Source: Candidatus Latescibacterota bacterium | GTDB taxonomy: Bacteria; Latescibacterota; UBA2968; GCA-2709665 | Assembly (NCBI GenBank): GCA_965208835.1 | Contig: OZ242358.1 | Span: 608,001-672,000 of the forward strand | Length of the DNA stretch: 64,000 nucleotides | Direction of reading: 5' to 3' | Shown here: piece by piece, positions 2,869-29,371 of the stretch | How the letters are laid out: every line of letters starts with the position of its first letter | Position numbering within the stretch: the first letter of the stretch is position 1 | Position numbers and translations under genes: made by a program | The notes under the pieces: generated by a model | The model's input: only the letters and a program-made list of their open reading frames with translations | The model's database searches: none | What the model was told of the DNA's origin: nothing

Positions 2869-4062
2869 CTATGACTCGCGCCCGACCCAGAGGTCGTTGA
2901 AGCCCGTCACGGGCCCGTCGTCGTTCGGGCCGCTGGCCAGGTCCAGTCCACCGAACAGGTACACCGAGTCATCCAGGGCTGCCATGCCCGGCACGCGCCG
3001 GACGCCCGGATGAGCCGCGGACTCCGAATAGTCCTTCGAGCCGTCGTGCGCCTGCAGGCAGGTCCAGTCGCCAGTGCCAAGATTCAGGCGCCAGAGATCG
3101 TTCATTTGCGGTCCGTTCACTTCCTCCGGCATGAAGGTTTCCCGGGGCCCGAACCCGCCGAAAACATACCATTGGTCCCCGATCCTTGCCGAACCCTGGC
3201 CGTACCTGGCTGAAGGCCGGTTCACCGCCCCGAAGTCATTTTCCGCGAGGCAGGTCCATCCGCGCGTGGCCGGATCGAAGCACCACAGGTCGTTATAGAA
3301 CTGCGGATCCCGATCCTGCGTGTCTCTCCCCGCCCAGACATATATCCGGTCCTCCCAGGCTGTCATCGACATGACGTACCGTTTCGGCGGGACAGCCGCG
3401 CCTTCCGCCGGTTCGATCCGGTCCCAGGTCCCGGTCCGGGTATCATAGATCCAGAGTTGTCTGCTCAGCACCGCGGTTTCGACGGTCGGGGGAAGCGGCG
3501 CCCGGTGGCCCCAACCGCCAAAGAGATAGATCCTGGCACCGATAACGGCCGTGCCGAACCCGCCCATCGTCGCCGGTCGACCGCACCCGGCAAAATCGGG
3601 ATGTTCCAGCAACACGCCGTCATCCGGCTCCAGCAGCGTCCAGCGCCCATCCACGGGTTCGTACATCCACAGATCGTTCAGAAGCGTGAACTTCCAGCCC
3701 TCGCTCAGGATCGACAACCCGCCAAACAGGTAGAACCGGTCGTCTATTTCAACCCACGCGGGCAGCATGCGAGCGCACGGTCTTTCTGCCGGGACGTCGA
3801 ACCCGGCAGCGCCGTCGTTCGCTTCCAGCAGGTTCCATGCCTCGAGCGACGGATCGTACACCCACAGGTCGTTCAATGCGCCCAGCGTGGACTTGTTTCC
3901 CTGTCCGGAGGAGGCGCCGTATCGGAGGGTACCGCCGCCGAACATATAGATGCGTCCTCGGTAGGGCAGCAGCGCTCCCGGCGCCTCTCTTGCACAGGGC
4001 ACGTCGGCGCCTGTCGAGTCGACTTCGGGATGGCAGAGGCGCCAGTTGAATCGGGGCGTCAT
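2869..4062 (-). CDS. Kelch-repeat beta-propeller protein
   Basis: Six YxFGG...NDLWxYD...W repeats; no obvious signal peptide. Confidence 0.88.
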   Translation of the reverse strand: MTPRFNWRLCHPEVDSTGADVPCAREAPGALLPYRGRIYMFGGGTLRYGASSGQGNKSTLGALNDLWVYDPSLEAWNLLEANDGAAGFDVPAERPCARMLPAWVEIDDRFYLFGGLSILSEGWKFTLLNDLWMYEPVDGRWTLLEPDDGVLLEHPDFAGCGRPATMGGFGTAVIGARIYLFGGWGHRAPLPPTVETAVLSRQLWIYDTRTGTWDRIEPAEGAAVPPKRYVMSMTAWEDRIYVWAGRDTQDRDPQFYNDLWCFDPATRGWTCLAENDFGAVNRPSARYGQGSARIGDQWYVFGGFGPRETFMPEEVNGPQMNDLWRLNLGTGDWTCLQAHDGSKDYSESAAHPGVRRVPGMAALDDSVYLFGGLDLASGPNDDGPVTGFNDLWVGRES

Positions 4063-5847: not shown

Positions 5848-7407
5848 TCAGATTCGCTTGATTATATTTCGAAATCCGTTCACGGCGTCCAGGAATCCCG
5901 TAGCGCCCGGCAGCGGCCACAGGCAGAAGACCCCGTCGAAACTTCGACACCTGAGATTGGAGAGAATCTCCACGAGTTCCGCGTTGCCTTCGCCGGAAAT
6001 CGCCGGCGCCCCGCTTTCCGCGACGACGTCCCTGAAGTCGACGTGCCTGACGGACCGCCGGATCGGGCCTTTATAGAGTCCCATATAGAACGGGCTTCCG
6101 CCCGATACCGCCACGGCGGCCGGATCGTATGCCATGTTTACTCTGTCCGACCGGATCTCTCTCAATCCTTCCGCGATATCCGACGGGTTCACTCCGGCGG
6201 GATTTCCCACGAGTACGTTGACTCCGTTGTCATCGGCGACCCGGGCGAGCCGTTCAAGCGAATCGTCCAGGTCCACCCGCTCGACGTCGTCTGCCAGATG
6301 GACGTGAAGGTACCCTGCATCGAGACCCGCTGCAATTGTACAAGCCTCCGCCAGAGCGCCGGAAGACGCGAACGGCGTGCGCAATACCACGACTTCGAGG
6401 TCCCGATCTTCCATGCGAACACGAAGGTCGTCGACATCGACCAGGTGATTCCTGTGCAGTTCGACCGATGAAACCCCCGCCTTTGCGACCAGGTCCAGCG
6501 CTTTTCCGGTATCTGCACCCACCGCCCACAGCGGCGTGCTCAGACTGAAATCCTCTTCCTCCAGCACGGACTTCAGGGGTTCCCCGGATGCGGCCGGCGC
6601 GCCGCGCCGGATCGCGGGAGGGCCGGCGGAGGATCTCGCGATTTTCTCCCTGTATCCCACGCAGTCCGCGCAATGCGGATTTTCGTCCAGCGCAAAGCCG
6701 GGGTCGTGCGACATCTCGCGCCGCATAATGGCCGCACCCCTGGGAGCGTCGATCAGGCGGCAAACCGCCGGCCCGATCGTATCCACCTCCATGGCGCCCT
6801 CCGCCCTGAACAGCCGATCGAACTTCAACACGCCCCCGCGATGCCCGCCCGGACAGCGGCGAATCGTCATCGCGCGGACCTCGCCGTTTTCGCCCACATA
6901 TTTCATATCCAATTCACGGAGATAGGGCAGGTCCAGTTCCGCCTCCACCGTGTGCAGCAGCGTCATCGTATCCAGGTCGCATCCGATGTGAAGCACCTTT
7001 CCGCCGAGGGTGATCAGGCGGCCATAGGGCGTCTCCGGCCCGTCCGGCACAGCGCTTTCTTCGTGATCGGAGAGGATCTCCTCCGCCCTCGCACCGTACC
7101 CGGCCACCGGATGATACGGATGCCGGCTGCGCAGCACGCCCGGCCGCAATCGGAACGTTTCGCTGATGACGCCCATGTCCGAAGGGATCGTGTCCGGATC
7201 GAACGTGCGTCCGTCGCGGGCCGGATGGGTGGGCATCATCAGGGTTCCCTCGGGACCCACGGCTTCGATGAGTGCGTCGATCACCGCGTTAGCGCCGCCC
7301 GATACGGGTCCCAGGCTGCTCAGTGACGAATGGACCACTACAATCGCGCCGGGCTGCAATCCCAGCGCCAACAACCCCTCTTCGATTTCGCGTTGAGTCA
7401 ACATCAC
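5848..7407 (-). CDS. AAC(3)-family N-acetyltransferase fused to a C-terminal xylose-isomerase-like TIM barrel
   Basis: N-terminal half has VHSSLSSLG, GTLMMPT, SRHPYHP and TLLHTVE. C-terminal half has YDPA, HVDFRD, GEGNAE and FDGVFCL, typical of the AP-endonuclease-2/sugar-phosphate isomerase fold. Confidence 0.8.
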   Translation of the reverse strand: MMLTQREIEEGLLALGLQPGAIVVVHSSLSSLGPVSGGANAVIDALIEAVGPEGTLMMPTHPARDGRTFDPDTIPSDMGVISETFRLRPGVLRSRHPYHPVAGYGARAEEILSDHEESAVPDGPETPYGRLITLGGKVLHIGCDLDTMTLLHTVEAELDLPYLRELDMKYVGENGEVRAMTIRRCPGGHRGGVLKFDRLFRAEGAMEVDTIGPAVCRLIDAPRGAAIMRREMSHDPGFALDENPHCADCVGYREKIARSSAGPPAIRRGAPAASGEPLKSVLEEEDFSLSTPLWAVGADTGKALDLVAKAGVSSVELHRNHLVDVDDLRVRMEDRDLEVVVLRTPFASSGALAEACTIAAGLDAGYLHVHLADDVERVDLDDSLERLARVADDNGVNVLVGNPAGVNPSDIAEGLREIRSDRVNMAYDPAAVAVSGGSPFYMGLYKGPIRRSVRHVDFRDVVAESGAPAISGEGNAELVEILSNLRCRSFDGVFCLWPLPGATGFLDAVNGFRNIIKRI

Positions 7408-8225: not shown

Positions 8226-9101
8226 CTAAACGTCGGAAGTGCCCGTATATCCTGGAGGAATAAGCCCCCGTTGATGGTCTCTGCAGTGCTCCAGGAAACT
8301 GCGGTCCCTCAACAGGAAACCGGGATCTTCCACGATGCACCGGGTGCCGGCGTCAATCAGTTTCCTTGCGTTCATAATCGTGATTTTCGCGTCGCCGATC
8401 CTGCCGTACGTCACAAGATCCAGCCTCTGCATTTCGGGCTCCATCAGACTGTAGTCCCTGGGCACGTTCGGCGTATGCACCTTCTGAACGTGGACATGGA
8501 TCCGGCCCCGCTCGTCCGCCACCTCCAGCCGGGAGGGCTCGTCCATAAGCGCATAGGGCGCGTGACCGTATTCCTCACACGCGTGCATCATCGTGCAGCT
8601 GGTCCATCCCGTTCCCAGAAACATGTAATGAGCGTCGATTTCGCCCAGCTTTCCCCAGGCCGTATCCCGTCCGCACGGCGTGAAACAGCGGACCGCGCCG
8701 TCCGCGAGGTATTCAGCATGGCGCCCGATCGCACACATCGGATTGCTGGAATCCAGGCATCTGACGGCATATGGATGGTGCCGGAAGACTTCCGTGATGC
8801 GACCCATCCTGGAGGGCGAGCGTCGCACGTCGAATGCCGGACTTCCGCTGTTGAGCGCATACTCGCAGTGCCACCCGTTGAAATGACACGTATGCACCGC
8901 AATCGTGCCCCGGGGCCCTACCGCCTCGAGAAACGCGTCGATCACGGTTTCCGCGCCGCCCTCCACGTAACCCATACTGCTCAGGGAATTGTGGAAAAAC
9001 ACCGCGTCGCCGGGATTCACCACCAGGTTCCGCAGGCCTTCGATGATGTCGTTTTTCCTGACGACGGTCTTTCCTTCCGGTGACCAGGGTTTCTTTGCCA
9101 T
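8226..9101 (-). CDS. AAC(3)-family N-acetyltransferase (second paralogue)
   Basis: HNSLSSMGYVEGG, MGRITEVFR and CTMMHACEE motifs. Confidence 0.85.
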   Translation of the reverse strand: MAKKPWSPEGKTVVRKNDIIEGLRNLVVNPGDAVFFHNSLSSMGYVEGGAETVIDAFLEAVGPRGTIAVHTCHFNGWHCEYALNSGSPAFDVRRSPSRMGRITEVFRHHPYAVRCLDSSNPMCAIGRHAEYLADGAVRCFTPCGRDTAWGKLGEIDAHYMFLGTGWTSCTMMHACEEYGHAPYALMDEPSRLEVADERGRIHVHVQKVHTPNVPRDYSLMEPEMQRLDLVTYGRIGDAKITIMNARKLIDAGTRCIVEDPGFLLRDRSFLEHCRDHQRGLIPPGYTGTSDV

Positions 9102-12729: not shown

Positions 12730-15700
12730 ATGCGGCTTAACCTGACTGTTTATACCGGCACCCTTTTAGCAATCTTCGGCCGGTTGCGTCGTATTCCGGC
12801 GGGCCCGGGCCATCGGCGCATTTTGCTGACCGTACTCTTGCTGGCGTCCGCCGTGGCGCCGGCTCACGGCTCAAATATACCCACAAACCTCGTCGCGACG
12901 CTCGGGGCGGGCGGGGTCTCGCTGAGCTGGAGTGCGCCAACCGGTAACGCGTCGACTGTTACGGGCTACCAGGTTCTTCGCCGGCACCTCGGAACCGACG
13001 CAGCCGGTGTTTTCAATGAAATTGGAACGACGGGCGCCCGCCAGACAACGTACACGGACGCAAGCGTCGTGGGTGGAGCGTCGTACGTGTATCGGGTGAA
13101 GGCCCGTCGCGGGGACAAGCTGAGCGGCTTTTCGAACTTTACACGGATCGAGGTGCCGCCGGAGCCGTCGAAGCCGTCAGGGCTGAGGGCGGCCGCCGGT
13201 CACCAGTCAGTGACGCTGTCGTGGAATAACCCGAACAACGGCACGATTACGGGTTACGAGTATCGCTACCGGACGGGCGGTGCCTGGTCGGAATGGACGG
13301 CCATCGATCCGAGCGACTCGAAGACGACCAGCCACCGTGTGACGGGTCTGGTCAATGGGCAGTCGTATACGTTTGAAGTGCGCGCGCAGAACCCGGCGGG
13401 ACCTGGCACCTCGGCCAGCGTCTCGATGAGGCCTATAGGGTTTGCGCCGACGAATCTCACAGTCGCGATCGTCGCCGGTTCGGTGACGCTATCGTGGGGG
13501 GTGCCGGCGGCCGATGCCGAATTCGTTACCGGCTATCAGGTGCTGCGCCGGCGGCCTGAAGTCGACGGGGCCGGGGTTTTTCATGCGATAGCCACAACGG
13601 GCGGCAGCGAGACGACGTACGTGGACGGCGGCGTGGAAGGAGGAGAGAAATACGCCTATCGGGTGAAGGCGTTGCGCGGTACGGATTTGAGTCTGTGGAC
13701 GAAGCCGGTGAATATCGTTGCGCCGTCGGTTCCTTCGGCGCCGGGCAACCTGAGCGCGGCGGTGGGTGACGGGTCGGTGACGCTGTCGTGGGACGATCCT
13801 GACGACGACGAAATTACGGGGTATCAGGTCCGCTATACGACAACCGGGACGCGCCTGCCGGAGTGGAACAATGTCCCGGGCAGCGATGCAAACACGACCA
13901 GCCATACGGTGAACCGGCTGACGAACTGTACGGAGTATACGTTCGAGGTGCGGGCGAGAGCGGGGGACATCACAGGCGCATCGTCGAGCGTGACTAGGAA
14001 GCCGGGTGCGGCTCCGTCTCAGGTGACGGGCGTGTCGGTGACGGGCCGGGGCGATGGGACGGTGTCGTTGAGCTGGAACGGCCTCAACGACGCGACGGTG
14101 ACGGGATACAGGATCACGTACAGCGGTGCGACGAGCGGTACGATAGACGTAGCGGGCCGTACGACGACGACGCACGACGTGACGGGTCTGACCAATTGCA
14201 GCGAGTATACGTTCGAAGTGAGCGCAACGAACAGTTGTGGCGTGGGTCCTTCGTCGAGCAGTGTGACGGGAACGCCGGGCGTGGCGCCGTCTCAGGTGAC
14301 GGGCGTGTCGGTGACGGACACGGGAGACGGGACGGTGTCGTTGAGCTGGGATGGTTCTGCCGACGCGACGGTGACGGGATACAAGATCACGTACAGCGGT
14401 GCGACGAGCGGCACGATAGACGTAGCAGGCGGAGCGACGACCAGCCACCGCGTGACGGATCTGACCAACTGCAGCGAATATACGTTCGAAGTACTTGCGG
14501 TCAACTGCGTCGGGGGTGGTTCTCCTTCGTCGAGCGTGACTGGGACGCCGAGCGCGGCGCCGTATCGGGCAAAGCGTGTGTCGGTGACGGGCACGGGCGA
14601 CGGGACGGTGTCGTTGAGGTGGGAACTTTCTGCCGACGCGACGGTGACGGGCTATAGGATCACGTACAGCGGTGCGACGAGCGGCACGATAGACTTAGCG
14701 GGCCGCACGACGAAGTGGCATGACGTGACGGGTCTGACCAACTGCAGCGAGTATACGTTCAAGGTGCTTACGGTCAACTGCAAGGGTTATGGTGAACCGT
14801 CTGTCGGCGTGACGGGAACGCCTGGTGTGGCGCCGGCTCAGGTGACGGGCGTGTCTGTGACGGGCACGGGCGACGGGACGGTGTCGTTGAGCTGGGATGG
14901 TTCTGCCGACGCGACGGTGACGGGATACAAGATCACGTACAGCGGTGCGACGAGCGGCACGATAGACGTAGCAGGCGGAGCGACGACCAGCCACCGCGTG
15001 ACGGATCTGACCAACTGCAGCGAATATACGTTCGAAGTACTTGCGGTCAACTGCGTCGGGGGTGGTTCTCCTTCGTCGAGCGTGACTGGGACGCCGAGCG
15101 CGGCGCCGTATCGGGCAAAGCGTGTGTCGGTGACGGGCACGGGCGACGGGACGGTGTCGTTGAGGTGGGAACTTTCTGCCGACGCGACGGTGACGGGCTA
15201 TAGGATCACGTACAGCGGTGCGACGAGCGGCACGATAGACTTAGCGGGCCGCACGACGAAGTGGCATGACGTGACGGGTCTGACCAACTGCAGCGAGTAT
15301 ACGTTCAAGGTGCTTACGGTCAACTGCAAGGGTTATGGTGAACCGTCTGTCGGCGTGACGGGAACGCCTGGTGTGGCGCCGGCTCAGGTGACGGGCGTGT
15401 CTGTGACGGGCACGGGCGACGGGACGGTGTCGTTGAGCTGGGACAGTTCTGACGACGCGATGGTGACGGGATATGAGATCACGTACAGCGGTGCGACGAG
15501 CGGCACGATAGACGTAGCGGGCCGCACGACGACGACGCAGGACGTGACGGGTCTGACCAATTGCAGCGAGTATACGTTCGAAGTGAGCGCGAGGAACAGC
15601 TGTGACGCGGGTCCTTCGTCGAGCAGTGTGACGGGAACGCCGGGCGTGGCGCCGTCTCAGGTGACGGGCGTGTCGGTGACGGGTACGGGCGACGGCACGG

Positions 15701-18700
15701 TGACGTTAAGCTGGGACAGTTCTGACGACGCGTCCGTCACGGGATATCAGATCTTGTATAGCGGCGCCACGAGCGACACGATAGACGTCGGTTCTGACGC
15801 GACGAGTCATGCGGTGGCAGGATTGACCAACTGTGAGGATTATACGTTCGAGGTGCTTGCGATCAACTGCAAGGCGGATGGCGCACCTTCGTCGAGCGTG
15901 ACGGGTACTCCGGGCGCGGCGCCGGCTCAGGTGACCGGCGTGACGGTGACGGGTACGGCCGACGGGACGGTGTCGTTGAGCTGGGACAGTTCTGACGACG
16001 CGACGGTGACGGGGTATAAGATCTCATACAGCGGTGCGGCGAGCGGCACGATCGTTGTAGCGGGCGGCGCGACGACGACGCAGGACGTGACGGGCCTGAC
16101 CAACTGTGAGGAATATACGTTCGAGGTGCTTGCGGTCAACTGCATGGGTGATGGCGCTGCTTCGTCGAGCGTGACGGCGCGTTTGGGCAATGCGCCGGGT
16201 GCGGTGACGGGTTTGAGCGGGTCAGAAGGGGACGACGGGGAGGTGACGTTGTCGTGGACGAATCCGAGTGGTGCGACGAAGAATGAGATCCGCTATGCGC
16301 CCAAGGGCACGACCCTGCCGACGACGTGGACGGAAATCGACGCTGCGACGAGCTACGAGGTAACGGGTCTGACGAACTGCACGGAGTATACGTTCGAGGT
16401 GCGCGCGAAGAACGGATGCGGTAACGGCGGTGCGGCCAGCGATGACGCGAGGCCGGGAAGCGCGCCGGGTGCGGTGACGGGTCTGAGCGGTTCGGAAGGG
16501 GACGACGGGCAGGTGACATTGTCGTGGACGAATCCGAGTGGTGCGACGAAGAATGAGATCCGCTATGCGCCCAAGGGCACGACCCTGCCGACGACGTGGA
16601 CGGAAATCGACGCTGCGACGAGCTACGAGGTAACGGGTCTGACGAACTGCACGGAGTATACGTTCGAGGTGCGCGCGAAGAACGGATGCGGTAACGGCGG
16701 TGCGGCCAGCGATGACGCGAGGCCGGGAAGCGCGCCGGGTGCGGTGACGGGTCTGAGCGGTTCGGAAGGGGACGACGGGCAGGTGACATTGTCGTGGACG
16801 AATCCGAGCGGAACGATCACGAACAACCAGATCCGTTATGCGAAAGCGGGTACTTCGTTGCCGTCGACGTGGACGAGTATAGGCGTCAAGACGAGCCACA
16901 CGGTGGAGGATCTGGACAACTGTGATGAATATACATTCGAGGTGCGTGCGGTCAACTGTGACGGGAATGGCGGCGCGGACAGCGGTGACGCCACGCCGTC
17001 AAGCGGATCAGCGCCGGGTTCTGTGACGGGCCTGGAAGCGACGAAGGGCAACGGGCAGGTGACATTATCGTGGACGAATCCGAGCGGAACGATCACGAAC
17101 AACCAGATCCGTTATGCGAAAGCGGGTACTTCGTTGCCGTCGACGTGGACGAGTATAGGCGTCAAGACGAGCCACACGGTGGAGGATCTGGACAACTGTG
17201 ATGAATATACATTCGAGGTGCGCGCGGTCAACTGTGACGGGAATGGCGGCGCGGACAGCGGTGACGCCACGCCGTCAAGCGGATCAGCGCCGGGTTCTGT
17301 GACGGATCTGGAAGCGACGAAGGGCAACGGGCAGGTGACATTGTCGTGGGCGAATCCGAGCGGTACGATCACGAACAACCAGATCCGTTATGCGAAAGCG
17401 GGTACTTCGTTGCCGTCGACGTGGACGAGTATAGGCGTCAAGACGAGCCACACGGTGGAGGATCTGGACAACTGTGATGAATATACATTCGAGGTGCGCG
17501 CGGTCAACTGTGACGGGAATGGCGGCGCGGACAGCGGTGACGCCACGCCGTCAAGCGGATCAGCGCCGGGTGCGGTGACGGGTCTGAGCGGTTCGGAAGG
17601 GGACGACGGGCAGGTGACATTGTCGTGGACGAATCCGAGCGGAACGATCACGAACAATCAGATCCGTTTTGCGAAAGCGGGTACTTCGTTGCCGTCGACG
17701 TGGACGAGTATAGGCGTCAAGACGAGCCACACGGTGGAGGATCTGGACAACTGTGATGAATATACATTCGAGGTGCGTGCGGTCAACTGTGACGGGAATG
17801 GCGGCGCGGACAGCGACAAGGCGACGCCGTCGAGCGGGTCGCCGCCGGGTGCGGTAACGAACCTGACCGCAACGGCTGGTAACACTCAGGTGGAGTTGTC
17901 GTGGACGAATCCGAGCGGCACGATAACGCACGTCCATTTCCGATATGCACCCAAGGGAACGACCCGTTGGTCGTCTTGGGCTAGAACCGACGCCGCGACG
18001 AGACACACTGTAACGGGTTTGACCAATTGCACTGAGTATACGTTCGAGGTGTGTGCGGTCAACTGCGACGGGCCCGGCGCCGCGGACAGCGATGACGCGA
18101 GGCCGGGTAGTGCCCCAGGCGCGGTGACGGGACTGAGCGCGACGAAGGGCAACGGTCAGGTGGCCTTGTCGTGGACGAATCCAAGCGGTGCGACGAAGAA
18201 CGTGATCCGTTATGCACCCAAGGGGACGGACGATTGGTCGTCGACGGAATTTGACGCAGCGACGAATCGTACGGTTGGGGAGTTGGCGAACTGTACGGAG
18301 TATACGTTCGAGGTGCGCGCGAAGAACGGTTGCGGTACCGGCGGAGCGGACAGTGAGAACGCGACCCCTGTAGGTGTGCCTGGAGAGGTGGACGACCTGA
18401 AAGCGGCGAAGGGTGACGAGCAGGTGACGCTGTCGTGGAGTGCGCCGTCGGGGTCGTGCGGGATAACCGGATACGAGATTAGCGTTGGTGACAGGACGCT
18501 TACCACGACGGGTACGAGTATTACGGTGGATGAGCTGACGAACTGCACCGAGTATACGTTTTCGGTGCTTGCAAAGACGATGATTTCAAGCGGCGCATCG
18601 AAAAGCGTGACGCAGACGCCTGTACCCGTGCCAGGACAGGTAACGAATCTTAGCAAGGCAGAGAATGACGGCAAAGTAACACTTTCGTGGGGCGCGCCGT

Positions 18701-20181
18701 CTGGGTCGTGCGGGATAACAGGCTATGAGATTAGCAACGGGGATAACACGTATACCACGACTGGGACGAGTTTCTTTGTATCGGGATTGACCAACTGCAC
18801 CGAATATACGTTTTCGGTGCTTGCAAAGACGATGATTTCAAGGGGCGCATCCAAAAGCGTCACGGCTACACCCGGCGTAAGGCCCTCTAAGGTTACCGGC
18901 GCGTCGGTGACGTCTGTAGGTGACGGGTCGGTGACGCTGGGCTGGGACCAACATAGCGACGCCACCGTCAGAAGCTATAGGATCTCCTACCTTGTGGGCC
19001 TCATGGTCGACTCGAGTATCGCAAACGGTCGTACCACGACGAGTTACAGAGTGACAGGGTTGAGCAATTGCGTTCAGCACAATTTTCAGGTACATGCGAG
19101 AAACTGCAAAGGCTTGGGTGGCGGGTCGGATGCGTTATCGGGCACACCGGGCGTGAAGCCCGCCGCACCCACCGGACTACAGGTCACATCGGAGGGTGAT
19201 GGGTCGGTATCGTTGAGTTGGACCCAACATAGCGACACCACCGTCCGCGGGTATAGGATCATTTACGGCACCAGCGGCGCGTCGAGTGATACTGTAACCG
19301 TAACCGGCCGCGGCACGACCAGCCGCTCAGTGTCGGGATTGACCAACTGCAGCCTGTATACGTTCAAGGCGCTTGCGTACAACTGCAAAGGGGATGGAAC
19401 GTCGTCGGGCGGCGTGACGGCTACGCCACATGCGCCGATTTCCGTATCGTCCATTTCGAATAGGGTGGGGACGAAAGGCAAGGCTGTTTCAGGGTTCAGG
19501 GTAGGGGTGAGCGGCGGGTGTCCCCCGTACACCTATTCTCTTTCGTCCGACCCTTCGTCAGGGTCCAATCTCTCTATTTCGAGCGGCAGAATTTCCGGCA
19601 CACCAACCGCAACGGGGAGTTTCACGATTGACGTGGAAGTAGAGGACGGATTGGACAATTCCGGATCATCGTCGTTCACGTTTACTGTGGCGGATCCAGT
19701 CGTTATTGCCAGCATTTCGGATAAAACAGAAAGTGTGTCCGTGCCGTTCTCGGAACAGGTTTCGGTGTCCGGTGGACGTACGGCTTACAGTTATTCCGTT
19801 TCAGTTACGCCAACACTGCCGCAAGGATCGACGCTTACGATATCAAACAGCGGGCTGATTGAAGGGGAGATTACCGGCGCCGATACCTATTCCGTTACCG
19901 TCACCGTGAGCGACGCCGACAGCCGGACCGATACCGAAGAGTTCGACGTAACCGTCGGACTACCTGGCGATTTCAACGGCAATGGCAGGCGCGATGCAGC
20001 CGACGCAGAAATGCTCAACAAGAAATCCGGCCTGAGATCGTCGGATGCGGGGTATGACCGGAGGATGGACCTGAACGGAGACGGGGTCATCAATTTCGCG
20101 GATCTCGTCATTCTAAGTGGATATATACAAAAGGACGCGTCGTCGCAGAGCGATAGTGAGTCGAATGATGAATCCGAATGA
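12730..20181 (+). CDS. Giant secreted surface protein: signal peptide, 24 fibronectin type III domains, two Ig/cadherin-like (He_PIG-type) domains, C-terminal dockerin-like module
   Basis: SD GGAGGT 5 nt upstream. Hydrophobic leader ending ...APAHG. Repeats of V(T/S)LSW...GY...LTN(C/G)xEYTFEVxAxN. C-terminal GDFNGNGRRDAAD...DLNGDGVINFADL. Confidence 0.95.
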   Translation: MRLNLTVYTGTLLAIFGRLRRIPAGPGHRRILLTVLLLASAVAPAHGSNIPTNLVATLGAGGVSLSWSAPTGNASTVTGYQVLRRHLGTDAAGVFNEIGTTGARQTTYTDASVVGGASYVYRVKARRGDKLSGFSNFTRIEVPPEPSKPSGLRAAAGHQSVTLSWNNPNNGTITGYEYRYRTGGAWSEWTAIDPSDSKTTSHRVTGLVNGQSYTFEVRAQNPAGPGTSASVSMRPIGFAPTNLTVAIVAGSVTLSWGVPAADAEFVTGYQVLRRRPEVDGAGVFHAIATTGGSETTYVDGGVEGGEKYAYRVKALRGTDLSLWTKPVNIVAPSVPSAPGNLSAAVGDGSVTLSWDDPDDDEITGYQVRYTTTGTRLPEWNNVPGSDANTTSHTVNRLTNCTEYTFEVRARAGDITGASSSVTRKPGAAPSQVTGVSVTGRGDGTVSLSWNGLNDATVTGYRITYSGATSGTIDVAGRTTTTHDVTGLTNCSEYTFEVSATNSCGVGPSSSSVTGTPGVAPSQVTGVSVTDTGDGTVSLSWDGSADATVTGYKITYSGATSGTIDVAGGATTSHRVTDLTNCSEYTFEVLAVNCVGGGSPSSSVTGTPSAAPYRAKRVSVTGTGDGTVSLRWELSADATVTGYRITYSGATSGTIDLAGRTTKWHDVTGLTNCSEYTFKVLTVNCKGYGEPSVGVTGTPGVAPAQVTGVSVTGTGDGTVSLSWDGSADATVTGYKITYSGATSGTIDVAGGATTSHRVTDLTNCSEYTFEVLAVNCVGGGSPSSSVTGTPSAAPYRAKRVSVTGTGDGTVSLRWELSADATVTGYRITYSGATSGTIDLAGRTTKWHDVTGLTNCSEYTFKVLTVNCKGYGEPSVGVTGTPGVAPAQVTGVSVTGTGDGTVSLSWDSSDDAMVTGYEITYSGATSGTIDVAGRTTTTQDVTGLTNCSEYTFEVSARNSCDAGPSSSSVTGTPGVAPSQVTGVSVTGTGDGTVTLSWDSSDDASVTGYQILYSGATSDTIDVGSDATSHAVAGLTNCEDYTFEVLAINCKADGAPSSSVTGTPGAAPAQVTGVTVTGTADGTVSLSWDSSDDATVTGYKISYSGAASGTIVVAGGATTTQDVTGLTNCEEYTFEVLAVNCMGDGAASSSVTARLGNAPGAVTGLSGSEGDDGEVTLSWTNPSGATKNEIRYAPKGTTLPTTWTEIDAATSYEVTGLTNCTEYTFEVRAKNGCGNGGAASDDARPGSAPGAVTGLSGSEGDDGQVTLSWTNPSGATKNEIRYAPKGTTLPTTWTEIDAATSYEVTGLTNCTEYTFEVRAKNGCGNGGAASDDARPGSAPGAVTGLSGSEGDDGQVTLSWTNPSGTITNNQIRYAKAGTSLPSTWTSIGVKTSHTVEDLDNCDEYTFEVRAVNCDGNGGADSGDATPSSGSAPGSVTGLEATKGNGQVTLSWTNPSGTITNNQIRYAKAGTSLPSTWTSIGVKTSHTVEDLDNCDEYTFEVRAVNCDGNGGADSGDATPSSGSAPGSVTDLEATKGNGQVTLSWANPSGTITNNQIRYAKAGTSLPSTWTSIGVKTSHTVEDLDNCDEYTFEVRAVNCDGNGGADSGDATPSSGSAPGAVTGLSGSEGDDGQVTLSWTNPSGTITNNQIRFAKAGTSLPSTWTSIGVKTSHTVEDLDNCDEYTFEVRAVNCDGNGGADSDKATPSSGSPPGAVTNLTATAGNTQVELSWTNPSGTITHVHFRYAPKGTTRWSSWARTDAATRHTVTGLTNCTEYTFEVCAVNCDGPGAADSDDARPGSAPGAVTGLSATKGNGQVALSWTNPSGATKNVIRYAPKGTDDWSSTEFDAATNRTVGELANCTEYTFEVRAKNGCGTGGADSENATPVGVPGEVDDLKAAKGDEQVTLSWSAPSGSCGITGYEISVGDRTLTTTGTSITVDELTNCTEYTFSVLAKTMISSGASKSVTQTPVPVPGQVTNLSKAENDGKVTLSWGAPSGSCGITGYEISNGDNTYTTTGTSFFVSGLTNCTEYTFSVLAKTMISRGASKSVTATPGVRPSKVTGASVTSVGDGSVTLGWDQHSDATVRSYRISYLVGLMVDSSIANGRTTTSYRVTGLSNCVQHNFQVHARNCKGLGGGSDALSGTPGVKPAAPTGLQVTSEGDGSVSLSWTQHSDTTVRGYRIIYGTSGASSDTVTVTGRGTTSRSVSGLTNCSLYTFKALAYNCKGDGTSSGGVTATPHAPISVSSISNRVGTKGKAVSGFRVGVSGGCPPYTYSLSSDPSSGSNLSISSGRISGTPTATGSFTIDVEVEDGLDNSGSSSFTFTVADPVVIASISDKTESVSVPFSEQVSVSGGRTAYSYSVSVTPTLPQGSTLTISNSGLIEGEITGADTYSVTVTVSDADSRTDTEEFDVTVGLPGDFNGNGRRDAADAEMLNKKSGLRSSDAGYDRRMDLNGDGVINFADLVILSGYIQKDASSQSDSESNDESE
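14280..15440 (+). repeat. Near-exact 546-bp tandem duplication (two Fn3 domains) within the adhesin gene
   Basis: Identical 182-aa block repeated. Identical antisense ORFs at 14292-14594 and 14838-15140 are offset by 546 bp. Boundaries approximate. Confidence 0.9.
16190..17830 (+). repeat. Near-exact 270/276/279-bp single-domain tandem repeats within the adhesin gene
   Basis: GCGCCGGGTGCGGTGACGG recurs at 16192, 16462 and 16732. TITNNQIR-type domains recur four times at 276-279-bp spacing. Confidence 0.9.
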
Positions 20182-20356
20182 TCGACTGGGCCGACGGGTT
20201 CGATCATGGTGACAGTTTCACCATGATTCGACTCGCTCGTGGTAGACATAATTCATCGCCAAGGCCATTTGGATTCTCTGTTACTTTGGCATGGATTCAA
20301 CTGATCGCAGCATTCACGACGTCACCGCAGCGGTGACACCAGACGGGGAGGTATCT

Positions 20357-21166
20357 ATGAGTAACCGCATTATTTCAATAGCTTGTTCGGCGTCTGTTTT
20401 TATGGGTACGGCCTTCGCGGGAGAGATGACCACGGGCCTCGACGTCGGCGGAGGACTCAACGCTTCTGCAAAACTGACGCTGGAACGTGTGGACGATCGG
20501 GCCGCCGAGAAGGGAACTCTAAGAGTGCGCGTCTCTTTGTCTCAGGTCACGAACGTCAAGGGTTACGGCTTTTTGCTGCTATATGACCCGGCGAAGTGTG
20601 AGTTTGTAGAAGCCACGAAACTTGCGGACAATTTGCTGAAATCGGATGCCGGCGGGAAGCCGGTGTTCATGGCCTCAATCCCCACACCGGGCAAATTGGA
20701 AATCGGCGCGCTAAACGTCGACGATAAGGGCGTAAGCGGCAAGGGCGGCCTGGTGGATCTCGTCTTCAGGTTGAGCGAAACAACGTCGTCATCGGATTTT
20801 CATGTCTCTGAGAGCGTGCTGGTGGGTCTGGACGGTGCGGTCGAACCGTTAACGCACGTCGAGATCGGCGACCTCAGGCCGCTCCCCGATGCCTACGGTC
20901 TGGATCGGAACGCGCCGAATCCGTTCAATCCGTCCACGGTCATAGGTTTTCAGCTTCCCGAGGCCGGCAGGGTACGGCTGGTGATCTACAATCTGCTCGG
21001 CCAGCAAGTTCGTGAACTTGTAAACGAAAAAATGGAGGCAGGTTACTTCACGGCGACGTGGGATGGGACGGATGCACTGGGCCGGCGGGTTGCGAGTGGG
21101 GTCTATCTCTATCGGATACAGGCAGGGAACTTTTCGGCGGTACAGCGCATGTTGTTGCTGAAATAG
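20357..21166 (+). CDS. Secreted cohesin-like domain protein with FlgD-Ig/T9SS type-A C-terminal sorting domain
   Basis: SD GGAGGT before ATG 20357 and signal peptide ending AFA. Cohesin-like VKGYGFLLLYDPAKCEF...GKGGLVDLVF. CTD NAPNPFNPST...IYNLLGQQV...SGVYLYRI...RMLLLK. Confidence 0.85.
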   Translation: MSNRIISIACSASVFMGTAFAGEMTTGLDVGGGLNASAKLTLERVDDRAAEKGTLRVRVSLSQVTNVKGYGFLLLYDPAKCEFVEATKLADNLLKSDAGGKPVFMASIPTPGKLEIGALNVDDKGVSGKGGLVDLVFRLSETTSSSDFHVSESVLVGLDGAVEPLTHVEIGDLRPLPDAYGLDRNAPNPFNPSTVIGFQLPEAGRVRLVIYNLLGQQVRELVNEKMEAGYFTATWDGTDALGRRVASGVYLYRIQAGNFSAVQRMLLLK

Positions 21167-21832: not shown

Positions 21833-22579
21833 ATGGGCACATGGAGGTATACGGCTGTTGCCGGGCTTCTGGTGGCGCTTCTCGCCCCGGATTCCGGCGC
21901 GCGGGAGTTCGACCGGATCGGCGGGCGGTTGCTGTTGGGCTACAACCTGCCCGTTTTGGGGCTTCGGAACAACTGGTACACCCAGGCAGTGCGTTGGGGC
22001 GGCAGCGTGGTTTACAACCGGAATGCCAACAACGCGCTCGAGTTCGAATATCACCGTTTACAATACAAAGACGGCAAGATTGAGAATCAGACGTTCACCT
22101 GGAACGAAGACTCGAAGGATTATGCAAGCCCACGCTCGGATGCCAGTATGCGGATCAACAGCGTGCTGTGCAACATGATTTTCCGACTCGGTGACAAGTC
22201 GCGGCTTTTCACTAACCAGGCGACTTCGCCCTACGTGGTAGCCGGCGGCGGATTTCACAGCTACAGCAATCGCGTGAGCGGCCTGATCTATCCCGGGCAG
22301 AAGGGCATCCCTGTCGCGGGCTCCGACCAGAACAGGCTGGATCCAGGCGTGGTTCTCGAACCGGTGGTGGAGAGCCGGTGGGCGCTGGGGGCCCATTTCG
22401 GGTTCGGCGTCGAGAGGTTCATGACCAACAACATTTCACTGGATTTCCGGGCTCAGCACAATTTCCTGGTAGGGACGCTCGGTCCGCGGGAGGCCTGGGG
22501 AATCAAGGGTGTGATGCCACTCCTGCAGATGCTGGACCTCGAGGTGGCCGTCAAATTCTACGAATCCGGAAGGAAGTAG
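21833..22579 (+). CDS. Outer-membrane beta-barrel protein (OmpA-like membrane domain)
   Basis: SD GGAGG, signal peptide, amphipathic strands, SPYVVAGGG, GAHFGFGVE and terminal VAVKFY. Confidence 0.75.
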   Translation: MGTWRYTAVAGLLVALLAPDSGAREFDRIGGRLLLGYNLPVLGLRNNWYTQAVRWGGSVVYNRNANNALEFEYHRLQYKDGKIENQTFTWNEDSKDYASPRSDASMRINSVLCNMIFRLGDKSRLFTNQATSPYVVAGGGFHSYSNRVSGLIYPGQKGIPVAGSDQNRLDPGVVLEPVVESRWALGAHFGFGVERFMTNNISLDFRAQHNFLVGTLGPREAWGIKGVMPLLQMLDLEVAVKFYESGRK

Positions 22580-22668
22580 AGCGCCTTGAACGCCCGGGAA
22601 AGGAGGAGTCGTATTCCGAATCGGGAGCGAAAGGCGATTTGTTAAACCATACAAACGGAGGTTCTGCA

Positions 22669-25600
22669 ATGAAGAAGTGCGTTTTGTTTTTCGGGATTCT
22701 TTCCCTCTGCACGGCGCTGGCGTTCAGCGGTAGCGCCTTTGCCGGAACGACGGGAAAGATCGTTGGAAGGGTCCTGGACAATCAGGGTGAACCGCTGCCC
22801 GGCGCCAACGTGGTCGTCGAGGGCCTGAACATCGGATCGACAGCCGATGCGGAGGGATTCTACGTGATTCTCCGCGCCGATCCGGGGCTGTATACGCTCA
22901 AGGCGTCTCTGATCGGTTACCAGGCCGAGTCGCAGACGGACGTGCGCGTGCAGGCGGACGTGACCACGGAGGTCGATTTCAGGCTCCAGGAGGCCGTACT
23001 CGAACTCGGTGAATTGGTTGTCAAGGCGGAACGTCCCCTGCTGGAAGTCGATAAGACTTCCAGTAAGTACATCGTGGGCGCCGATGAGATCGAGCAGCTT
23101 CCCATCGTGCGCACCACCAGCGAATTGATCACGCTGCAGCCGGGTGTGCACCTCGACGGCTCCGACCGCATGCGGGGCAGCAACCGGCCCGGAGAATGGC
23201 GGAGCCGCACGGGCGGGGACGTGGCCTATTACGTGGACGGCGTGAAAATCGTGAACAGCGACGGCGCCGGGTCTCACAACTGGAAGGCCATCAACCGGTC
23301 GATTGTCCAGGAAATATCCGTGGTTACGGGCGGGATGAACGCCGAATACGGCAACGCCCAGGCAGGCGTCATCAGCATCATCACGAAGGACGGGAGCCAG
23401 AACTTCCACGGATGGGCGGAGTATCGCAGGACGCCCCCGGGGCAGAAGCACTGGGGCGCGAACGTCTACGAAAGCCCGTCGCACCTCGACAAGATGAGAT
23501 GGGGCGAGGGCGAATGGGAGAACGAGCGGGACCCGGAAACGGGACGTCTCACCCACCAGCGCTCGGCCTACGATGAGATCACCGGCCACGAGGTGGAGGG
23601 GAATGTCTCGGGTCCGCTTTCCAGGAGCGCTTCGTTCATCGTTTCGGGCAAGACGGCACGGAATGCGCCCATCTATCCCTCGGGGACGGAGAGGGGCTAT
23701 TATGACGACATAGGACGGTTTGTCCCTTCTCTGAATAACTACCAGGGATCATACAGCGTCACCGTCCGCGCGTCCGAAAACGTAAAGATGAAGGTCGGCG
23801 GTCTGTTCGAGTACAATAAGAAGTTTATCGGAACCGAACGTGACTCATGGCGGAACGAGCGGAACGCGGGTACCTCCAGCGGCGTCATCCGCGGCTCAGG
23901 CAAGAACATATTCCTGCCGGTTGACTGGAGCGCGGCGGGCAAGATGAGCACGACCCACAATATGCAATACGTGGCCATCACCCATTCTCTCTCACCCAGG
24001 ACGTTCTACGACCTGCGGATATCGCGCTATTCAACCGTCGACGACACCAGCGAAATCGCGGCGAGAACGTCGGACGTGCGTACGGATGCGGACGGATGGT
24101 TCGCCGTGGACCGGGAGGTCCGGCATTACCAGGTTGCGGACCGGAAGCGGTACCAGGTCAAGCTGGATCTGGCCAGCCAGATCACGAAGGGGCATTTCGT
24201 GAAGGCCGGATTCGAATTCATCAAGTACAGCATGTTTCTTACACGCTATACCGGAGAGAGCGCACAGGCCAGGCGGCTGGAGTTCGCGGGCGCGCAGGGC
24301 GTGATCGGAGACCCTGTCAAGCCCCAGCACCTTGCCATTTACGCGCAGGACAAGATGGAGTTCGAAGGCATGGTAATCAATGCCGGCCTGCGCCTGGACC
24401 TGTTCGATCCGGTATCCAAGTTCCCTGCATCGGGCGCTTACGCGTTCTCGCCCATGTACAACTCGCCGCTGAGGTTTCAGAATGCGCCCCACCGCGAACC
24501 GGTGGTGTTCAAGAACCTGAGCCCGCGGGTGGGGGTATCGCATCCGATCACGGCGCGGTCGGCCATGCACTATTTCGCGGGTCTGTTCCTGGCCTATCCC
24601 GACATCTATTACCTGTTTAACGGGGACTGGCGGACGTCCGGTCCGGACCAGGACTGGAACGGGAACGGCGTGATCGACCCTGGTGAACAGTATAACGCGA
24701 TGCGGCCGTCATACCCGATCCGCAGCGGGCAGGGCACCACCGAAATCCGACCCGAGAAGACCGTTTCGATGGAGGTGGGCGTCGACTGGAACTTCGTGCA
24801 GGACTACACGGGCGCGATCGCGCTGTACTATAAGAGCGCGAAGGACCAGTACCATTACCATTCCGACGTCCGCTTCTTCGCCCCGCACAGACCGGGCTTC
24901 GTGCATCCCTACGCCCGGGTCCTGCACAACAACGGTTTCGAAGAGCAGCGGGGTCTGGAATTTTCCCTTCGGAAGCCGCTCAGCCACAACTTCGCCATCA
25001 ACCTTGCGTACAACATGACCTGGGCCCAGGCCGGATGGGGCAACTTCGACGCCTGGTTCAACTTCCTGTATCCGGACTCCCTCTACATCGCCAGCGGGAG
25101 ATACTGGTACGAGTACAGGGTGGAGAACGGCGTTGAGGTGCCGGTACCCCTCACCGTAGAGCAGATCCGGGAGATCGGGGCCACCGCCAACAGATATATC
25201 CGGAACAACGACCGGCGGGACGGCAATCCCGGAGGCAGGGGATACGAGCAGACCCGTATGACGGCCCGGGAGTACGGGCTCATCGGTCTGGACGACTTCG
25301 AACTGGACCACATCCACGTCTGGGCCAGGGGTTATCAGACCGGCCTGAACGCCGACGGCGGCAACATCCGCAACCAGGGCAGTGTGCAGTTCCTCTACCT
25401 CACGCCGGGGGACTACGGACCCGATTTCAAGGTGTTCGGAAGCAAGTTCCTTGCCAACTGGCGGGTCAACCTGCTCTGGCGCATGCAGAACACGGGTTCG
25501 TTCTGGTACACGCCGCCGAATTCCGGCCGCGAACGGAGGCTGCGTCCCATCCGCACCTGGACCGACGTCGCCATCGAGAAGCGCTTTCCGTTCGGTCATG

Positions 25601-25809
25601 GCCGCGGCGACGTCAGCCTCTTCCTGGAGGTGCGGAACCTGTTCAACCAGAAGGACGACAGTTCATTCAATACCACTGACTGGACCAACTGGGGCCTGCT
25701 GACGGCCCGTCCGGACAACTCTCACTTCCTCCTGTACGGGGATACGGCCGACCGGAGCTTCTACAGCCATCCCCGGCGCACGGAAATGGGTCTGAGAATA
25801 CAGTTCTGA
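22669..25809 (+). CDS. TonB-dependent receptor with N-terminal carboxypeptidase-regulatory-like domain
   Basis: SD GGAGG before ATG 22669. AGTTGKIVGRV...PLPGANV, plug YYVDGV...GGMNAEYGNAQAGVI, NAGLRLD, SPRVG, PEKT, RNLFN, terminal GLRIQF. Confidence 0.93.
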   Translation: MKKCVLFFGILSLCTALAFSGSAFAGTTGKIVGRVLDNQGEPLPGANVVVEGLNIGSTADAEGFYVILRADPGLYTLKASLIGYQAESQTDVRVQADVTTEVDFRLQEAVLELGELVVKAERPLLEVDKTSSKYIVGADEIEQLPIVRTTSELITLQPGVHLDGSDRMRGSNRPGEWRSRTGGDVAYYVDGVKIVNSDGAGSHNWKAINRSIVQEISVVTGGMNAEYGNAQAGVISIITKDGSQNFHGWAEYRRTPPGQKHWGANVYESPSHLDKMRWGEGEWENERDPETGRLTHQRSAYDEITGHEVEGNVSGPLSRSASFIVSGKTARNAPIYPSGTERGYYDDIGRFVPSLNNYQGSYSVTVRASENVKMKVGGLFEYNKKFIGTERDSWRNERNAGTSSGVIRGSGKNIFLPVDWSAAGKMSTTHNMQYVAITHSLSPRTFYDLRISRYSTVDDTSEIAARTSDVRTDADGWFAVDREVRHYQVADRKRYQVKLDLASQITKGHFVKAGFEFIKYSMFLTRYTGESAQARRLEFAGAQGVIGDPVKPQHLAIYAQDKMEFEGMVINAGLRLDLFDPVSKFPASGAYAFSPMYNSPLRFQNAPHREPVVFKNLSPRVGVSHPITARSAMHYFAGLFLAYPDIYYLFNGDWRTSGPDQDWNGNGVIDPGEQYNAMRPSYPIRSGQGTTEIRPEKTVSMEVGVDWNFVQDYTGAIALYYKSAKDQYHYHSDVRFFAPHRPGFVHPYARVLHNNGFEEQRGLEFSLRKPLSHNFAINLAYNMTWAQAGWGNFDAWFNFLYPDSLYIASGRYWYEYRVENGVEVPVPLTVEQIREIGATANRYIRNNDRRDGNPGGRGYEQTRMTAREYGLIGLDDFELDHIHVWARGYQTGLNADGGNIRNQGSVQFLYLTPGDYGPDFKVFGSKFLANWRVNLLWRMQNTGSFWYTPPNSGRERRLRPIRTWTDVAIEKRFPFGHGRGDVSLFLEVRNLFNQKDDSSFNTTDWTNWGLLTARPDNSHFLLYGDTADRSFYSHPRRTEMGLRIQF

Positions 25810-28390: not shown

Positions 28391-29371
28391 ATGAAGCGGA
28401 TATTATGCGTGACACTGATGACCGTTCTCGCGGCCGGCGCAATGGGGAACTCGCCGGCGGAAGCGCGGGACGTGCCCGAAATCCTCAAGTCCGAGGATTT
28501 CCGGAAGCTGGGACTGGCGTCGTTTCCATGGATGAAGGTGACCCAGTCCCCGCGCGCGGCCGCCATGGGAGATGCGTTTACGGCCGTGTCGAACGACATC
28601 AACGCGATCTTTTCGAACCCGGCCGGCCTGGTCCACCTGGAGCGGTTCGGGTACCAGTTGACCCACACCAGGTGGCTGGTCGACACAGGGTTCTACAGCG
28701 GTGCCTTTGCCTACAGGACGGGCTGGGGTGTTCTGGGCGCCAGCGTTTTGAACTACGACGTGGGCGATATGCCGGTACGGACCATTTTCAACCCGGAGGG
28801 CACGGGAGAGATGATCAAGGGCGGCGGGACCTCCGTCGGCCTGGCCTATGCGTTTCACGCGACCGACAAGCTGGGTCTGGGCGTCCGGGTGGTGTATATT
28901 TCGGAGACCCTGCACGTGGACAACATGACCTCCCTGGTTCTGGACGCCGGAACCCACTTCTACACGGGTTTCCGGAGTTCCCGAATCGCCCTGGCCATGC
29001 GGAATTTCGGGCCGGATACCAAGGTGCTGGCGGAGGACCAGAAGTTCCTGATGCCGATGAATTTCGATATCGGCGTGGCCATGGAGCTCTTCGGTCAGAT
29101 GGACGAGCCGAATTACCTGACCGTCTCTTTCGCCAGTTCCTATCAGGTCGACTACGAACAGCGGTGGCAGATCGGCAGTGAGCTCTGGCTTTCCAGTGCG
29201 GTGGCCCTGCGCGCCGGTTACAAGTTCAACCACGACCTTGAAACTTACAGCTTCGGCGCGGGCTTCAAGGGCGACTGGGGCGACCGGACGGTGCTGGTGG
29301 ATGTCGCCTATACCAACGTCGGCGAGTTGCTGGATGCACCGATTCGGTTCAGCATTGGGGGCGCATTTTAG
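28391..29371 (+). CDS. PorV/PorQ-family (FadL-like) outer-membrane barrel
   Basis: SPRAAAMGDAFTAVSNDINAIFSNPAGL, ALRAGY and terminal FSIGGAF; 326 aa with signal peptide. Confidence 0.88.
   Translation: MKRILCVTLMTVLAAGAMGNSPAEARDVPEILKSEDFRKLGLASFPWMKVTQSPRAAAMGDAFTAVSNDINAIFSNPAGLVHLERFGYQLTHTRWLVDTGFYSGAFAYRTGWGVLGASVLNYDVGDMPVRTIFNPEGTGEMIKGGGTSVGLAYAFHATDKLGLGVRVVYISETLHVDNMTSLVLDAGTHFYTGFRSSRIALAMRNFGPDTKVLAEDQKFLMPMNFDIGVAMELFGQMDEPNYLTVSFASSYQVDYEQRWQIGSELWLSSAVALRAGYKFNHDLETYSFGAGFKGDWGDRTVLVDVAYTNVGELLDAPIRFSIGGAF

Follow-up and report, generated by a model that had tools for sequence, protein, structure and literature searches.

How might 43 cysteines be paired in a giant surface protein built largely of fibronectin type III (Fn3) domains? 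The question is raised by a gene at 12730..20181 (+) of a 64,000-nucleotide stretch of DNA (here called the window; positions 608,001 to 672,000 of contig OZ242358.1, assembly GCA_965208835.1) from a Candidatus Latescibacterota bacterium, the genome of which is a single contig of 5.18 Mb (59.5% G+C; estimated to be 97.8% complete). An initial annotation of the window had proposed that the cysteine in the E-F loop of each Fn3 domain bonds to a cysteine at the N-terminal pole of the following domain, producing a covalently locked stalk with a cysteine-free tip that would be flexible. As a whole, this interpretation is partly supported by the analysis presented here. Comparison of the sequences makes pairing across the domain junctions very likely, the disulfide chemistry of the pairs is likely but unproven, and the mechanical consequence of such stapling is one that we infer.

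Domain architecture and cysteine layout

The gene is a single open frame of 2483 codons, and its product (P0001; 2483 aa) begins with a hydrophobic, signal-like stretch. Pfam fn3 (PF00041) matches 24 stretches of the translation (score, 821 bits; cut-off, 25; E = 9.4e-254). These are followed by two stretches matching He_PIG (PF05345; score, 38.3 bits; cut-off, 24), which a hidden Markov model (HMM) built for the purpose places as two domains at aa 2235-2410, by a match to Dockerin_1 (PF00404; aa 2412-2466; score, 28.5 bits; cut-off, 22.9), and by an acidic, Ser-rich tail. In the Pfam search P0001 had no match to Por_Secre_tail, i.e., no C-terminal sorting domain of a type IX secretion system (T9SS), and it contains no glycoside hydrolase module. 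The translation and the Pfam matches thus describe a giant predicted secreted surface protein with tandem immunoglobulin-like (Ig-like) repeats.

We segmented and aligned the 24 Fn3 domains (d1 to d24) and mapped them onto a profile built from them; all of the features described below lie on the forward strand. Domains d1-d3 (12865..13725; aa 46-332) contain no cysteine and would form the distal end of the protein, provided that the C-terminal dockerin holds it. The sole cysteine of d4 (13726..14010; aa 333-427) is C400 in the E-F loop (motif LTNC; codon 13927-13929), the first donor of the series. Each domain of d5-d20 (14011..18372; aa 428-1881) and d23-d24 (18880..19431; aa 2051-2234) combines an E-F cysteine (donor) with an F-G cysteine (acceptor; NC, NSC, or NGC). 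Domains d21-d22 (18373..18879; aa 1882-2050) belong to a short subtype, which keeps the E-F cysteine, has no F-G cysteine, and carries its acceptor in the B-C loop (C1910 and C1994; PSGSCGITGY). The series closes in He_PIG-1 (19432..19695; aa 2235-2322) with a lone B-C loop cysteine, C2264 (SGGCPPY, hereafter GGC; codon 19519-19521), after which He_PIG-2 (19696..19959; aa 2323-2410) and the type I dockerin (19963..20127; aa 2412-2466) are cysteine free. The layout that the initial annotation had described for the 24 Fn3 domains and the Ig-like domain behind them is borne out by the translation, the alignment, and DSSP, and the span that it assigned to the series (13730-19530) corresponds to d4 through C2264. 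Every cysteine position that it gave was correct; it overlooked a third cysteine in d19, C1775, which lies in strand F (FEVCAVNC; codon 18052-18054). Because of C1775, the total is odd (42 + 1). The equivalent position is occupied by Arg, Leu, or Ser in the sister repeats, and the cysteine is absent from the 78%-identical ortholog at locus L001 of a sister genome. C1775 could be an unpaired thiol, could have arisen by recent substitution, or could reflect an error in the sequence.

Under a rule shifted by one domain, every junction from d4 to He_PIG-1 would be faced by one exit-pole cysteine (E-F) and one entry-pole cysteine (F-G, or B-C in d21, d22, and He_PIG), so placing 21 cysteine pairs opposite each other. 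The proposed pairs are C400-C503, C490-C593, C581-C684, C672-C775, C763-C866, C854-C958, C945-C1047, and C1035-C1138 from d4 to d12, and C1126-C1230, C1217-C1320, C1307-C1410, C1398-C1502, C1490-C1594, C1582-C1687, C1675-C1779, and C1767-C1868 from d12 to d20. The short subtype would contribute C1855-C1910 (d20-d21) and C1939-C1994 (d21-d22), the C-terminal Fn3 domains C2023-C2126 and C2114-C2219, and C2207 of d24 would close the series with C2264 of He_PIG-1.

At the DNA level the repeat region contains tandem arrays (273 and 276 bp), and at the protein level d6 is identical to d8 and d7 to d9. Many of the domains are thus recent duplicates, and the array's interior does not count as independent evidence; the information comes from its two ends and from the switch at d20-d23. 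Among all orders of the 24 domains, a fraction of 2.4e-5 leaves no cysteine unpaired under the shifted rule, but this null is unrealistically random, and the comparison with homologs therefore carries the weight. A separate feature of the array is that both cysteine-bearing loops of d15-d18 (16921..17800) are flanked by acidic, Asn/Gly-rich motifs (DLDNCDEY and NCDGNGGAD). These motifs resemble calcium-binding loops, and the junctions may bind cations as well.

Loop geometry in predicted structures

AlphaFold2 models were obtained for d3-d6 (mean pLDDT, 93.8) and for d20 through He_PIG-2 (mean pLDDT, 89.8), and strands were assigned by DSSP. The d3-d6 model consists of head-to-tail beta sandwiches with seven strands per domain, and its best Foldseek matches are multidomain Fn3 fragments of fibronectin and LAR (E values of 1e-21 to 1e-23). 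The E-F cysteines sit 2 to 3 residues ahead of strand F and the F-G cysteines just past it, and C1910 and C1994 fall between strands B and C. The two cysteines of one domain therefore flank a strand F of 9 residues (e.g., residues 256 and 269 of the model on either side of strand 259-267, and residues 347 and 359 on either side of strand 350-358). The ends of a 9-residue strand are roughly 30 to 40 Å apart, as estimated from strand length, which is far beyond the reach of a disulfide. With the cysteines at opposite ends of strand F, the models exclude an E-F to F-G disulfide within a domain, contrary to the close intradomain placement that the initial annotation had named as one outcome speaking against its proposal.

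Strand counting in the models places the A-B, C-C', and E-F loops at the exit pole of a domain and the B-C, C'-E, and F-G loops at its entry pole, in agreement with the earlier statement that the C-terminal pole holds the E-F loop and the N-terminal pole the B-C and F-G loops. The same count for He_PIG-1 puts its GGC motif in the B-C loop, again at the entry pole. This assignment of loops to poles rests on strand counting in predicted structures together with general knowledge of the fold. A complex prediction with d4 and d5 supplied as separate chains (score, 0.03; mark, 0.34) gave no contacts and is evidence neither way.

The shifted rule in Fn3 homologs

We scanned 122 proteins (the 120 best of 744 homologs, plus two locus open reading frames [ORFs]; 2758 Fn3 domains) with the domain profile. 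In 85 of the 86 cases in which a domain with an E-F cysteine has an adjacent Fn3 domain downstream, the latter carries a B-C or F-G cysteine. The association within domains is looser: 85 domains have both cysteines, 10 have the E-F cysteine alone, and 11 have the acceptor alone. For six domains with an acceptor, the preceding domain lacks an E-F cysteine. One of these, d2 of L001, is a truncation artifact at a contig start; another, P0083 d21, has an A-B loop cysteine upstream instead; and two more (P0012 d15 and P0023 d6) were flagged as having a cysteine near the domain start, possibly the acceptor itself. This is the covariation among homologs that the initial annotation had suggested examining, and, together with the exclusion of bonds within domains, it lends strong support to its pairing of E-F(n) with an N-pole cysteine of domain n+1 and to the He_PIG cysteine as the end of the series.

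The ends of the arrays follow the same rule. In all five proteins with the pattern (P0001, P0002, P0003, P0004, and P0024), the first cysteine-bearing domain has an E-F cysteine only. These chain-start domains span three subtypes, and those of P0003 and P0024 are near copies of the domain that follows, differing in the lack of the F-G cysteine only. At the other end, the last Fn3 domain of P0001 to P0004 and L001 is followed by a He_PIG domain with one GGC cysteine in the B-C loop and a second He_PIG domain with none, and this lone cysteine is kept at 42 to 78% identity. The totals are even under the shifted scheme in P0002 (46 = 1 + 44 + 1) and P0003 (40 = 1 + 38 + 1), and P0004 has 28 cysteines plus one in the signal peptide. 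The start rule is obeyed by P0024, the C-terminal cysteines of which (11 cysteines in all) have no clean pairing.

Three further arrangements bear on the register. The acceptor of the short subtype is swapped between proteins: L043 (i.e., P0003) has it in the F-G loop, and d21 and d22 of the window have it in the B-C loop. The L052 protein (genome G008) contains a mini-chain consisting of a poly-Pro linker, a linker cysteine, a domain with E-F and F-G cysteines, and a domain with an F-G cysteine only; all four cysteines find partners solely under the shifted scheme. In a separate family (P0031, P0103, and P0083), Fn3 arrays that are otherwise free of cysteine carry isolated pairs of an E-F cysteine in domain n and a B-C or F-G cysteine in domain n+1, and once an A-B loop cysteine (profile column 15) followed by an F-G cysteine; the chance of two lone cysteines landing in the shifted geometry is about 5e-4 per protein. 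An E-F cysteine in P0103 d19 stands at the end of the record.

Among the best 150 of 26190 matches to d5-d6 in a library of 1.84 billion representative proteins, the pattern was otherwise absent, and in 122 further proteins drawn from those 150 (3036 Fn3 domains) a cysteine occupied E-F profile column 65 in no case and column 66 in four. The Fn3 form of the pattern thus looks confined to this lineage and the P0031/P0083/P0103 family. The premise that Fn3 domains are typically disulfide free held in rough terms; it did not hold for other Fn3 arrays, which carry cysteine pairs within domains (profile columns 44/57 and 75/80). Giant Fn3 proteins of this kind, with about 85 to 90 cysteines each, include P0021, P0022, and P0026 from Actinoplanes and Dactylosporangium (columns 44/57) and P0202 (columns 75/80), and their cysteines look like within-domain pairs. 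Disulfide-bearing Fn3 arrays are therefore not rare; what is rare is this register.

The same grammar in He_PIG arrays

In paralogs from sister genomes, it is the He_PIG arrays that carry regular cysteines, and the Fn3 arrays are free of them. A He_PIG profile built for this analysis gave 202 domain matches, with duplicates removed before counting. Wherever a He_PIG domain has a cysteine just before strand F, the next domain has a GGC cysteine in the B-C loop (30 of 30). Sorted by donor, the 83 GGC acceptors are preceded by a linker cysteine (35), an upstream E-F-type cysteine (30), an upstream C-terminal cysteine (10), or no donor within He_PIG (8), and five of the last eight are He_PIG-1 domains that follow an Fn3 domain with an E-F cysteine. 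The chains start with a linker cysteine and end with a GGC-only domain; that of L047 (genome G003), for example, reads linker, seven domains with B-C and E-F cysteines, one with the B-C cysteine, and one with none. Shifted He_PIG chains were also found in L044 (G014) and in L050 and L051 (G013). Across two domain families, therefore, the comparison indicates that the same grammar holds, with donors in a linker or an E-F loop and acceptors in a B-C or F-G loop.

The host genome itself encodes a paralog of 2510 aa (G000:C1:4477605-4485134, minus strand), in which 11 cysteine-free Fn3 domains are followed by 15 He_PIG domains. The He_PIG cysteines of this protein obey the linker/B-C/F-G grammar, and the stapled part is again the one next to the dockerin.

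A proposed stapled stalk and the alternatives to it

The reading that we favor, and hold to be probably right with real room for doubt, is that of a dockerin-held surface stalk in which 21 serial interdomain disulfides link E-F(n) to F-G or B-C(n+1). Outside the cell these bonds would most likely form between the facing cysteines. As the acceptor and donor of a domain bracket strand F, staples and F strands would together make up one continuous covalent line (disulfide, strand F, disulfide, strand F). Tension would then run along a strand that is already extended, leaving the domains unable to hinge or to release slack by unfolding. The exceptions would be d21, d22, and He_PIG, where the line would cross some 30 residues (strands C to E) as compared with 12 elsewhere; these would be the sole extensible modules.

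Several observations weigh against this reading. C1775 is unpaired under any scheme, and lone cysteines also occur in P0106 d2, P0098 d9, P0012 d15, and P0005 d34 (at the protein end). Proteins P0001 to P0004 are related, so that several of the array ends may be inherited and not independent. The machinery for oxidative folding is the largest gap: neither DsbB (PF02600) nor VKOR (PF07884) has a match in the host genome or one above the cut-off in any of the 15 genomes of the genus, with their positive controls matched in 6 and 3 of 14 genomes; across the order, 3 VKOR and 1 DsbB were found among the 41 genomes searched. The host genome has two DsbA-family matches, one without a signal peptide and the other a 540-aa ORF in which the motif (CPYG) has a single cysteine and which has no clear export signal, and it has no match to Thioredoxin_4. 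Even cysteine counts among proteins with at least two cysteines show no clear bias toward exported-like proteins (58.8% of 782 ORFs, versus 54.4% of 4545 cytoplasmic-like ORFs), in a noisy gene set based on heuristic ORF and signal peptide calls. A search for Erv1/Alr gave no match, but its controls were unmatched too, making it uninformative. With no DsbB or VKOR found, the disulfide itself remains a proposal. The genome does carry a gene for a haem-copper oxidase (COX1, 445 bits), which means that the cell is exposed to oxygen.

As the lineage shows no DsbB or VKOR, the bonds would be made by an unrecognized extracytoplasmic oxidase or would form spontaneously in oxygen. A more far-reaching version, which we consider doubtful, combines such a route with an inextensible cable of disulfides and F strands, the load path of which bypasses the rest of the domains, and with the donor and acceptor grammar common to Fn3 and He_PIG as a lineage-wide design rule for surface fibers. 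Should the bonds form spontaneously in oxygen, the stiffness of the stalk would act as a redox switch, slack in anoxia and locked in oxygen.

Two alternatives accept the proximity of the cysteines and differ in what the cysteines do. In one, the apposed cysteines are reduced in vivo or bridge a soft metal ion with two thiolates per junction, and stiffness depends on metal or redox state. The shifted pattern demands proximity only, with no particular bond chemistry, and the missing DsbB and VKOR, the lack of a recognized periplasmic DsbA, and the acidic neighbors of the cysteines in d15-d18 all fit this idea; two thiolates alone, however, would be a weak and unusual structural site, apposed surface thiols would oxidize in the oxygen that the haem-copper oxidase implies, and the solved precedent, the Aureispira grappling-hook protein GhpA, shows disulfides. 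We regard it as unlikely. In the other, chains are bundled parallel and in register and the disulfides join neighbors, E-F(n) of one reaching F-G or B-C(n+1) of the next, to give a cross-linked, multistranded cable. Partners at the same axial height on a neighboring chain would satisfy the shifted rule equally well, and GhpA stems are seven-stranded bundles according to the available part of that report, which nevertheless describes the disulfides as intramolecular. In addition, a linker cysteine replaces the upstream E-F cysteine in L052 and serves 35 of the 83 He_PIG acceptors, which is simplest as a contact within one chain, and no sign of oligomerization emerged from this analysis; an interchain arrangement seems to us quite unlikely.

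Two others dispense with the junctions. The cysteines could be partnerless by-products of duplicating a two-cysteine repeat unit, with the ends differing by chance, as the long stretches of recent tandem duplicates would allow and as C1775 and the few singletons in other proteins, which show that a lone cysteine is tolerated, might suggest. Such an origin is hard to reconcile with E-F-only starts in five of five proteins and three domain subtypes, with the conservation of the lone He_PIG cysteine across the homologs, or with the move of the acceptor between loops, the mini-chain of L052, the lone pairs seen in a separate family, and the 30-of-30 rule in He_PIG, and we find it very improbable. 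Finally, each Fn3 domain might close its own E-F to F-G disulfide (C-x11/12-C). The co-occurrence of the two cysteines in 85 domains is what this would predict, but it would have to span the estimated 30 to 40 Å along strand F in the models and would leave d4, both B-C cysteines, and the He_PIG cysteine unpaired; we give it practically no chance.

Relation to known systems

Covalent stapling between the domains of bacterial Ig-like stalks is already known from GhpA, in which cryo-electron microscopy (cryoEM) revealed intramolecular disulfides between nearby Ig-like domains (bioRxiv 10.1101/2024.01.29.577165). Its authors credit the disulfides, among other interactions, with the straight and rigid stem (bioRxiv 10.1101/2024.01.29.577165). 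As far as the available part of that report allows comparison, P0001 is likewise a giant bacterial surface protein of tandem Ig-like repeats, with interdomain disulfides proposed here from the cysteine pattern, whereas GhpA has a T9SS C-terminal sorting domain, is heptameric and glycosylated, and has repeats that are not described there as Fn3. P0001 differs in its dockerin, in its Pfam fn3 and He_PIG domains, in the strict n to n+1 register at the ends of strand F, and in coming from another phylum. GhpA chains were absent from the Protein Data Bank (PDB) sequence matches of d4-d6 (the best 60 of 77, with E values up to 0.001) and of He_PIG-1 and He_PIG-2 (one match, with E values up to 1).

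By sequence and by fold, the d3-d6 model is matched best by eukaryotic tandem Fn3 rods (fibronectin FN7-10, LAR, and the titin A-band; PDB 1fnf, 3t1w, 6tpw, and 8g4l), which have the fold and the head-to-tail order in common with P0001. In the alignments, however, the two best-matching titin chains have no cysteine at the E-F and F-G positions of the window protein, and the junctions of these rods are not known to be covalently stapled. The 51-repeat adhesin of Mobiluncus mulieris is a long Ig-like repeat array hardened by covalent cross-links (PMC10619420); from the available part of the source, we take the cross-links of Gram-positive adhesins to lie within single domains, in contrast to the cross-junction bonds proposed here. 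The RTX adhesins MpAFP and MhLap have extender domains that are rigidified by calcium and of high mechanical stability (PMC5380327), so that the stabilizer, in the part of that work available, is a calcium clamp and not, as would be the case here, a covalent S-S bond.

Our literature searches found nothing on the Fn3 form of such stapling, the strict register at strand F, a grammar shared with He_PIG, anchoring by a dockerin, or its occurrence in a genus without DsbB and VKOR. A search on interdomain disulfides and fibronectin type III returned engineered Fc only, and no relevant work was found on dockerin or cohesin in Latescibacteria/Latescibacterota. If the pairs are disulfides, they would constitute a simple code that can be read from sequence. 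Each donor would sit in an E-F loop or a linker and its acceptor one domain farther on, in a B-C or F-G loop, and an otherwise flexible chain of Fn3 or He_PIG beads would become a rod with covalent continuity. The one structural precedent, GhpA, would then be extended beyond its own phylum and to the repeat fold that is commonest in bacteria. The rule, if true, would predict stiff segments in giant surface proteins and could suggest designs for engineered Fn3 tandems. With no DsbB or VKOR in the genus, it also becomes testable how, or whether, such bonds form there.

Neighboring genes and probable anchoring

A cohesin gene (20291..21166, +; 291 aa) starts 110 bp downstream of the giant gene. 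Its product contains a cohesin domain (29.7 bits against a cut-off of 24.1) and a C-terminal FlgD_ig domain with a weak Por_Secre_tail match, and is a likely surface anchor for the dockerin. Farther downstream lies a SusC-like TonB-dependent receptor gene with an N-terminal CarboxypepD_reg domain (22378..25809, +). The order of giant dockerin gene, cohesin gene, and SusC-like TonB receptor gene is kept at the orthologous locus L001, where the counterpart of the cohesin gene lies at 2874..3707. Judged from gene content, P0001 is most likely a surface fiber held at its C terminus by a dockerin-cohesin contact, and the locus has the look of a unit for cohesin-dockerin surface display that is linked to an outer membrane transporter. 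A C-terminal Dockerin_1 domain and a cohesin gene directly downstream are shared with cellulosome-type display; P0001, in contrast, has no glycoside hydrolase, and the cohesin protein ends in a FlgD_ig/weak T9SS-type tail, not in an SLH or sortase anchor.

A PorV-like gene (28391..29371, +) was also detected, with a weak score of 26.7 bits that is just below the cut-off of 27. Together with the receptor, it suggests a nutrient-capture locus and an envelope of the T9SS type. Upstream of the giant gene, the window contains two minus-strand ORFs with matches to Antibiotic_NAT (aminoglycoside 3-N-acetyltransferase; 5848..7407 and 8226..9101; 178 and 160 bits), one of which is fused to a xylose-isomerase-like TIM barrel.

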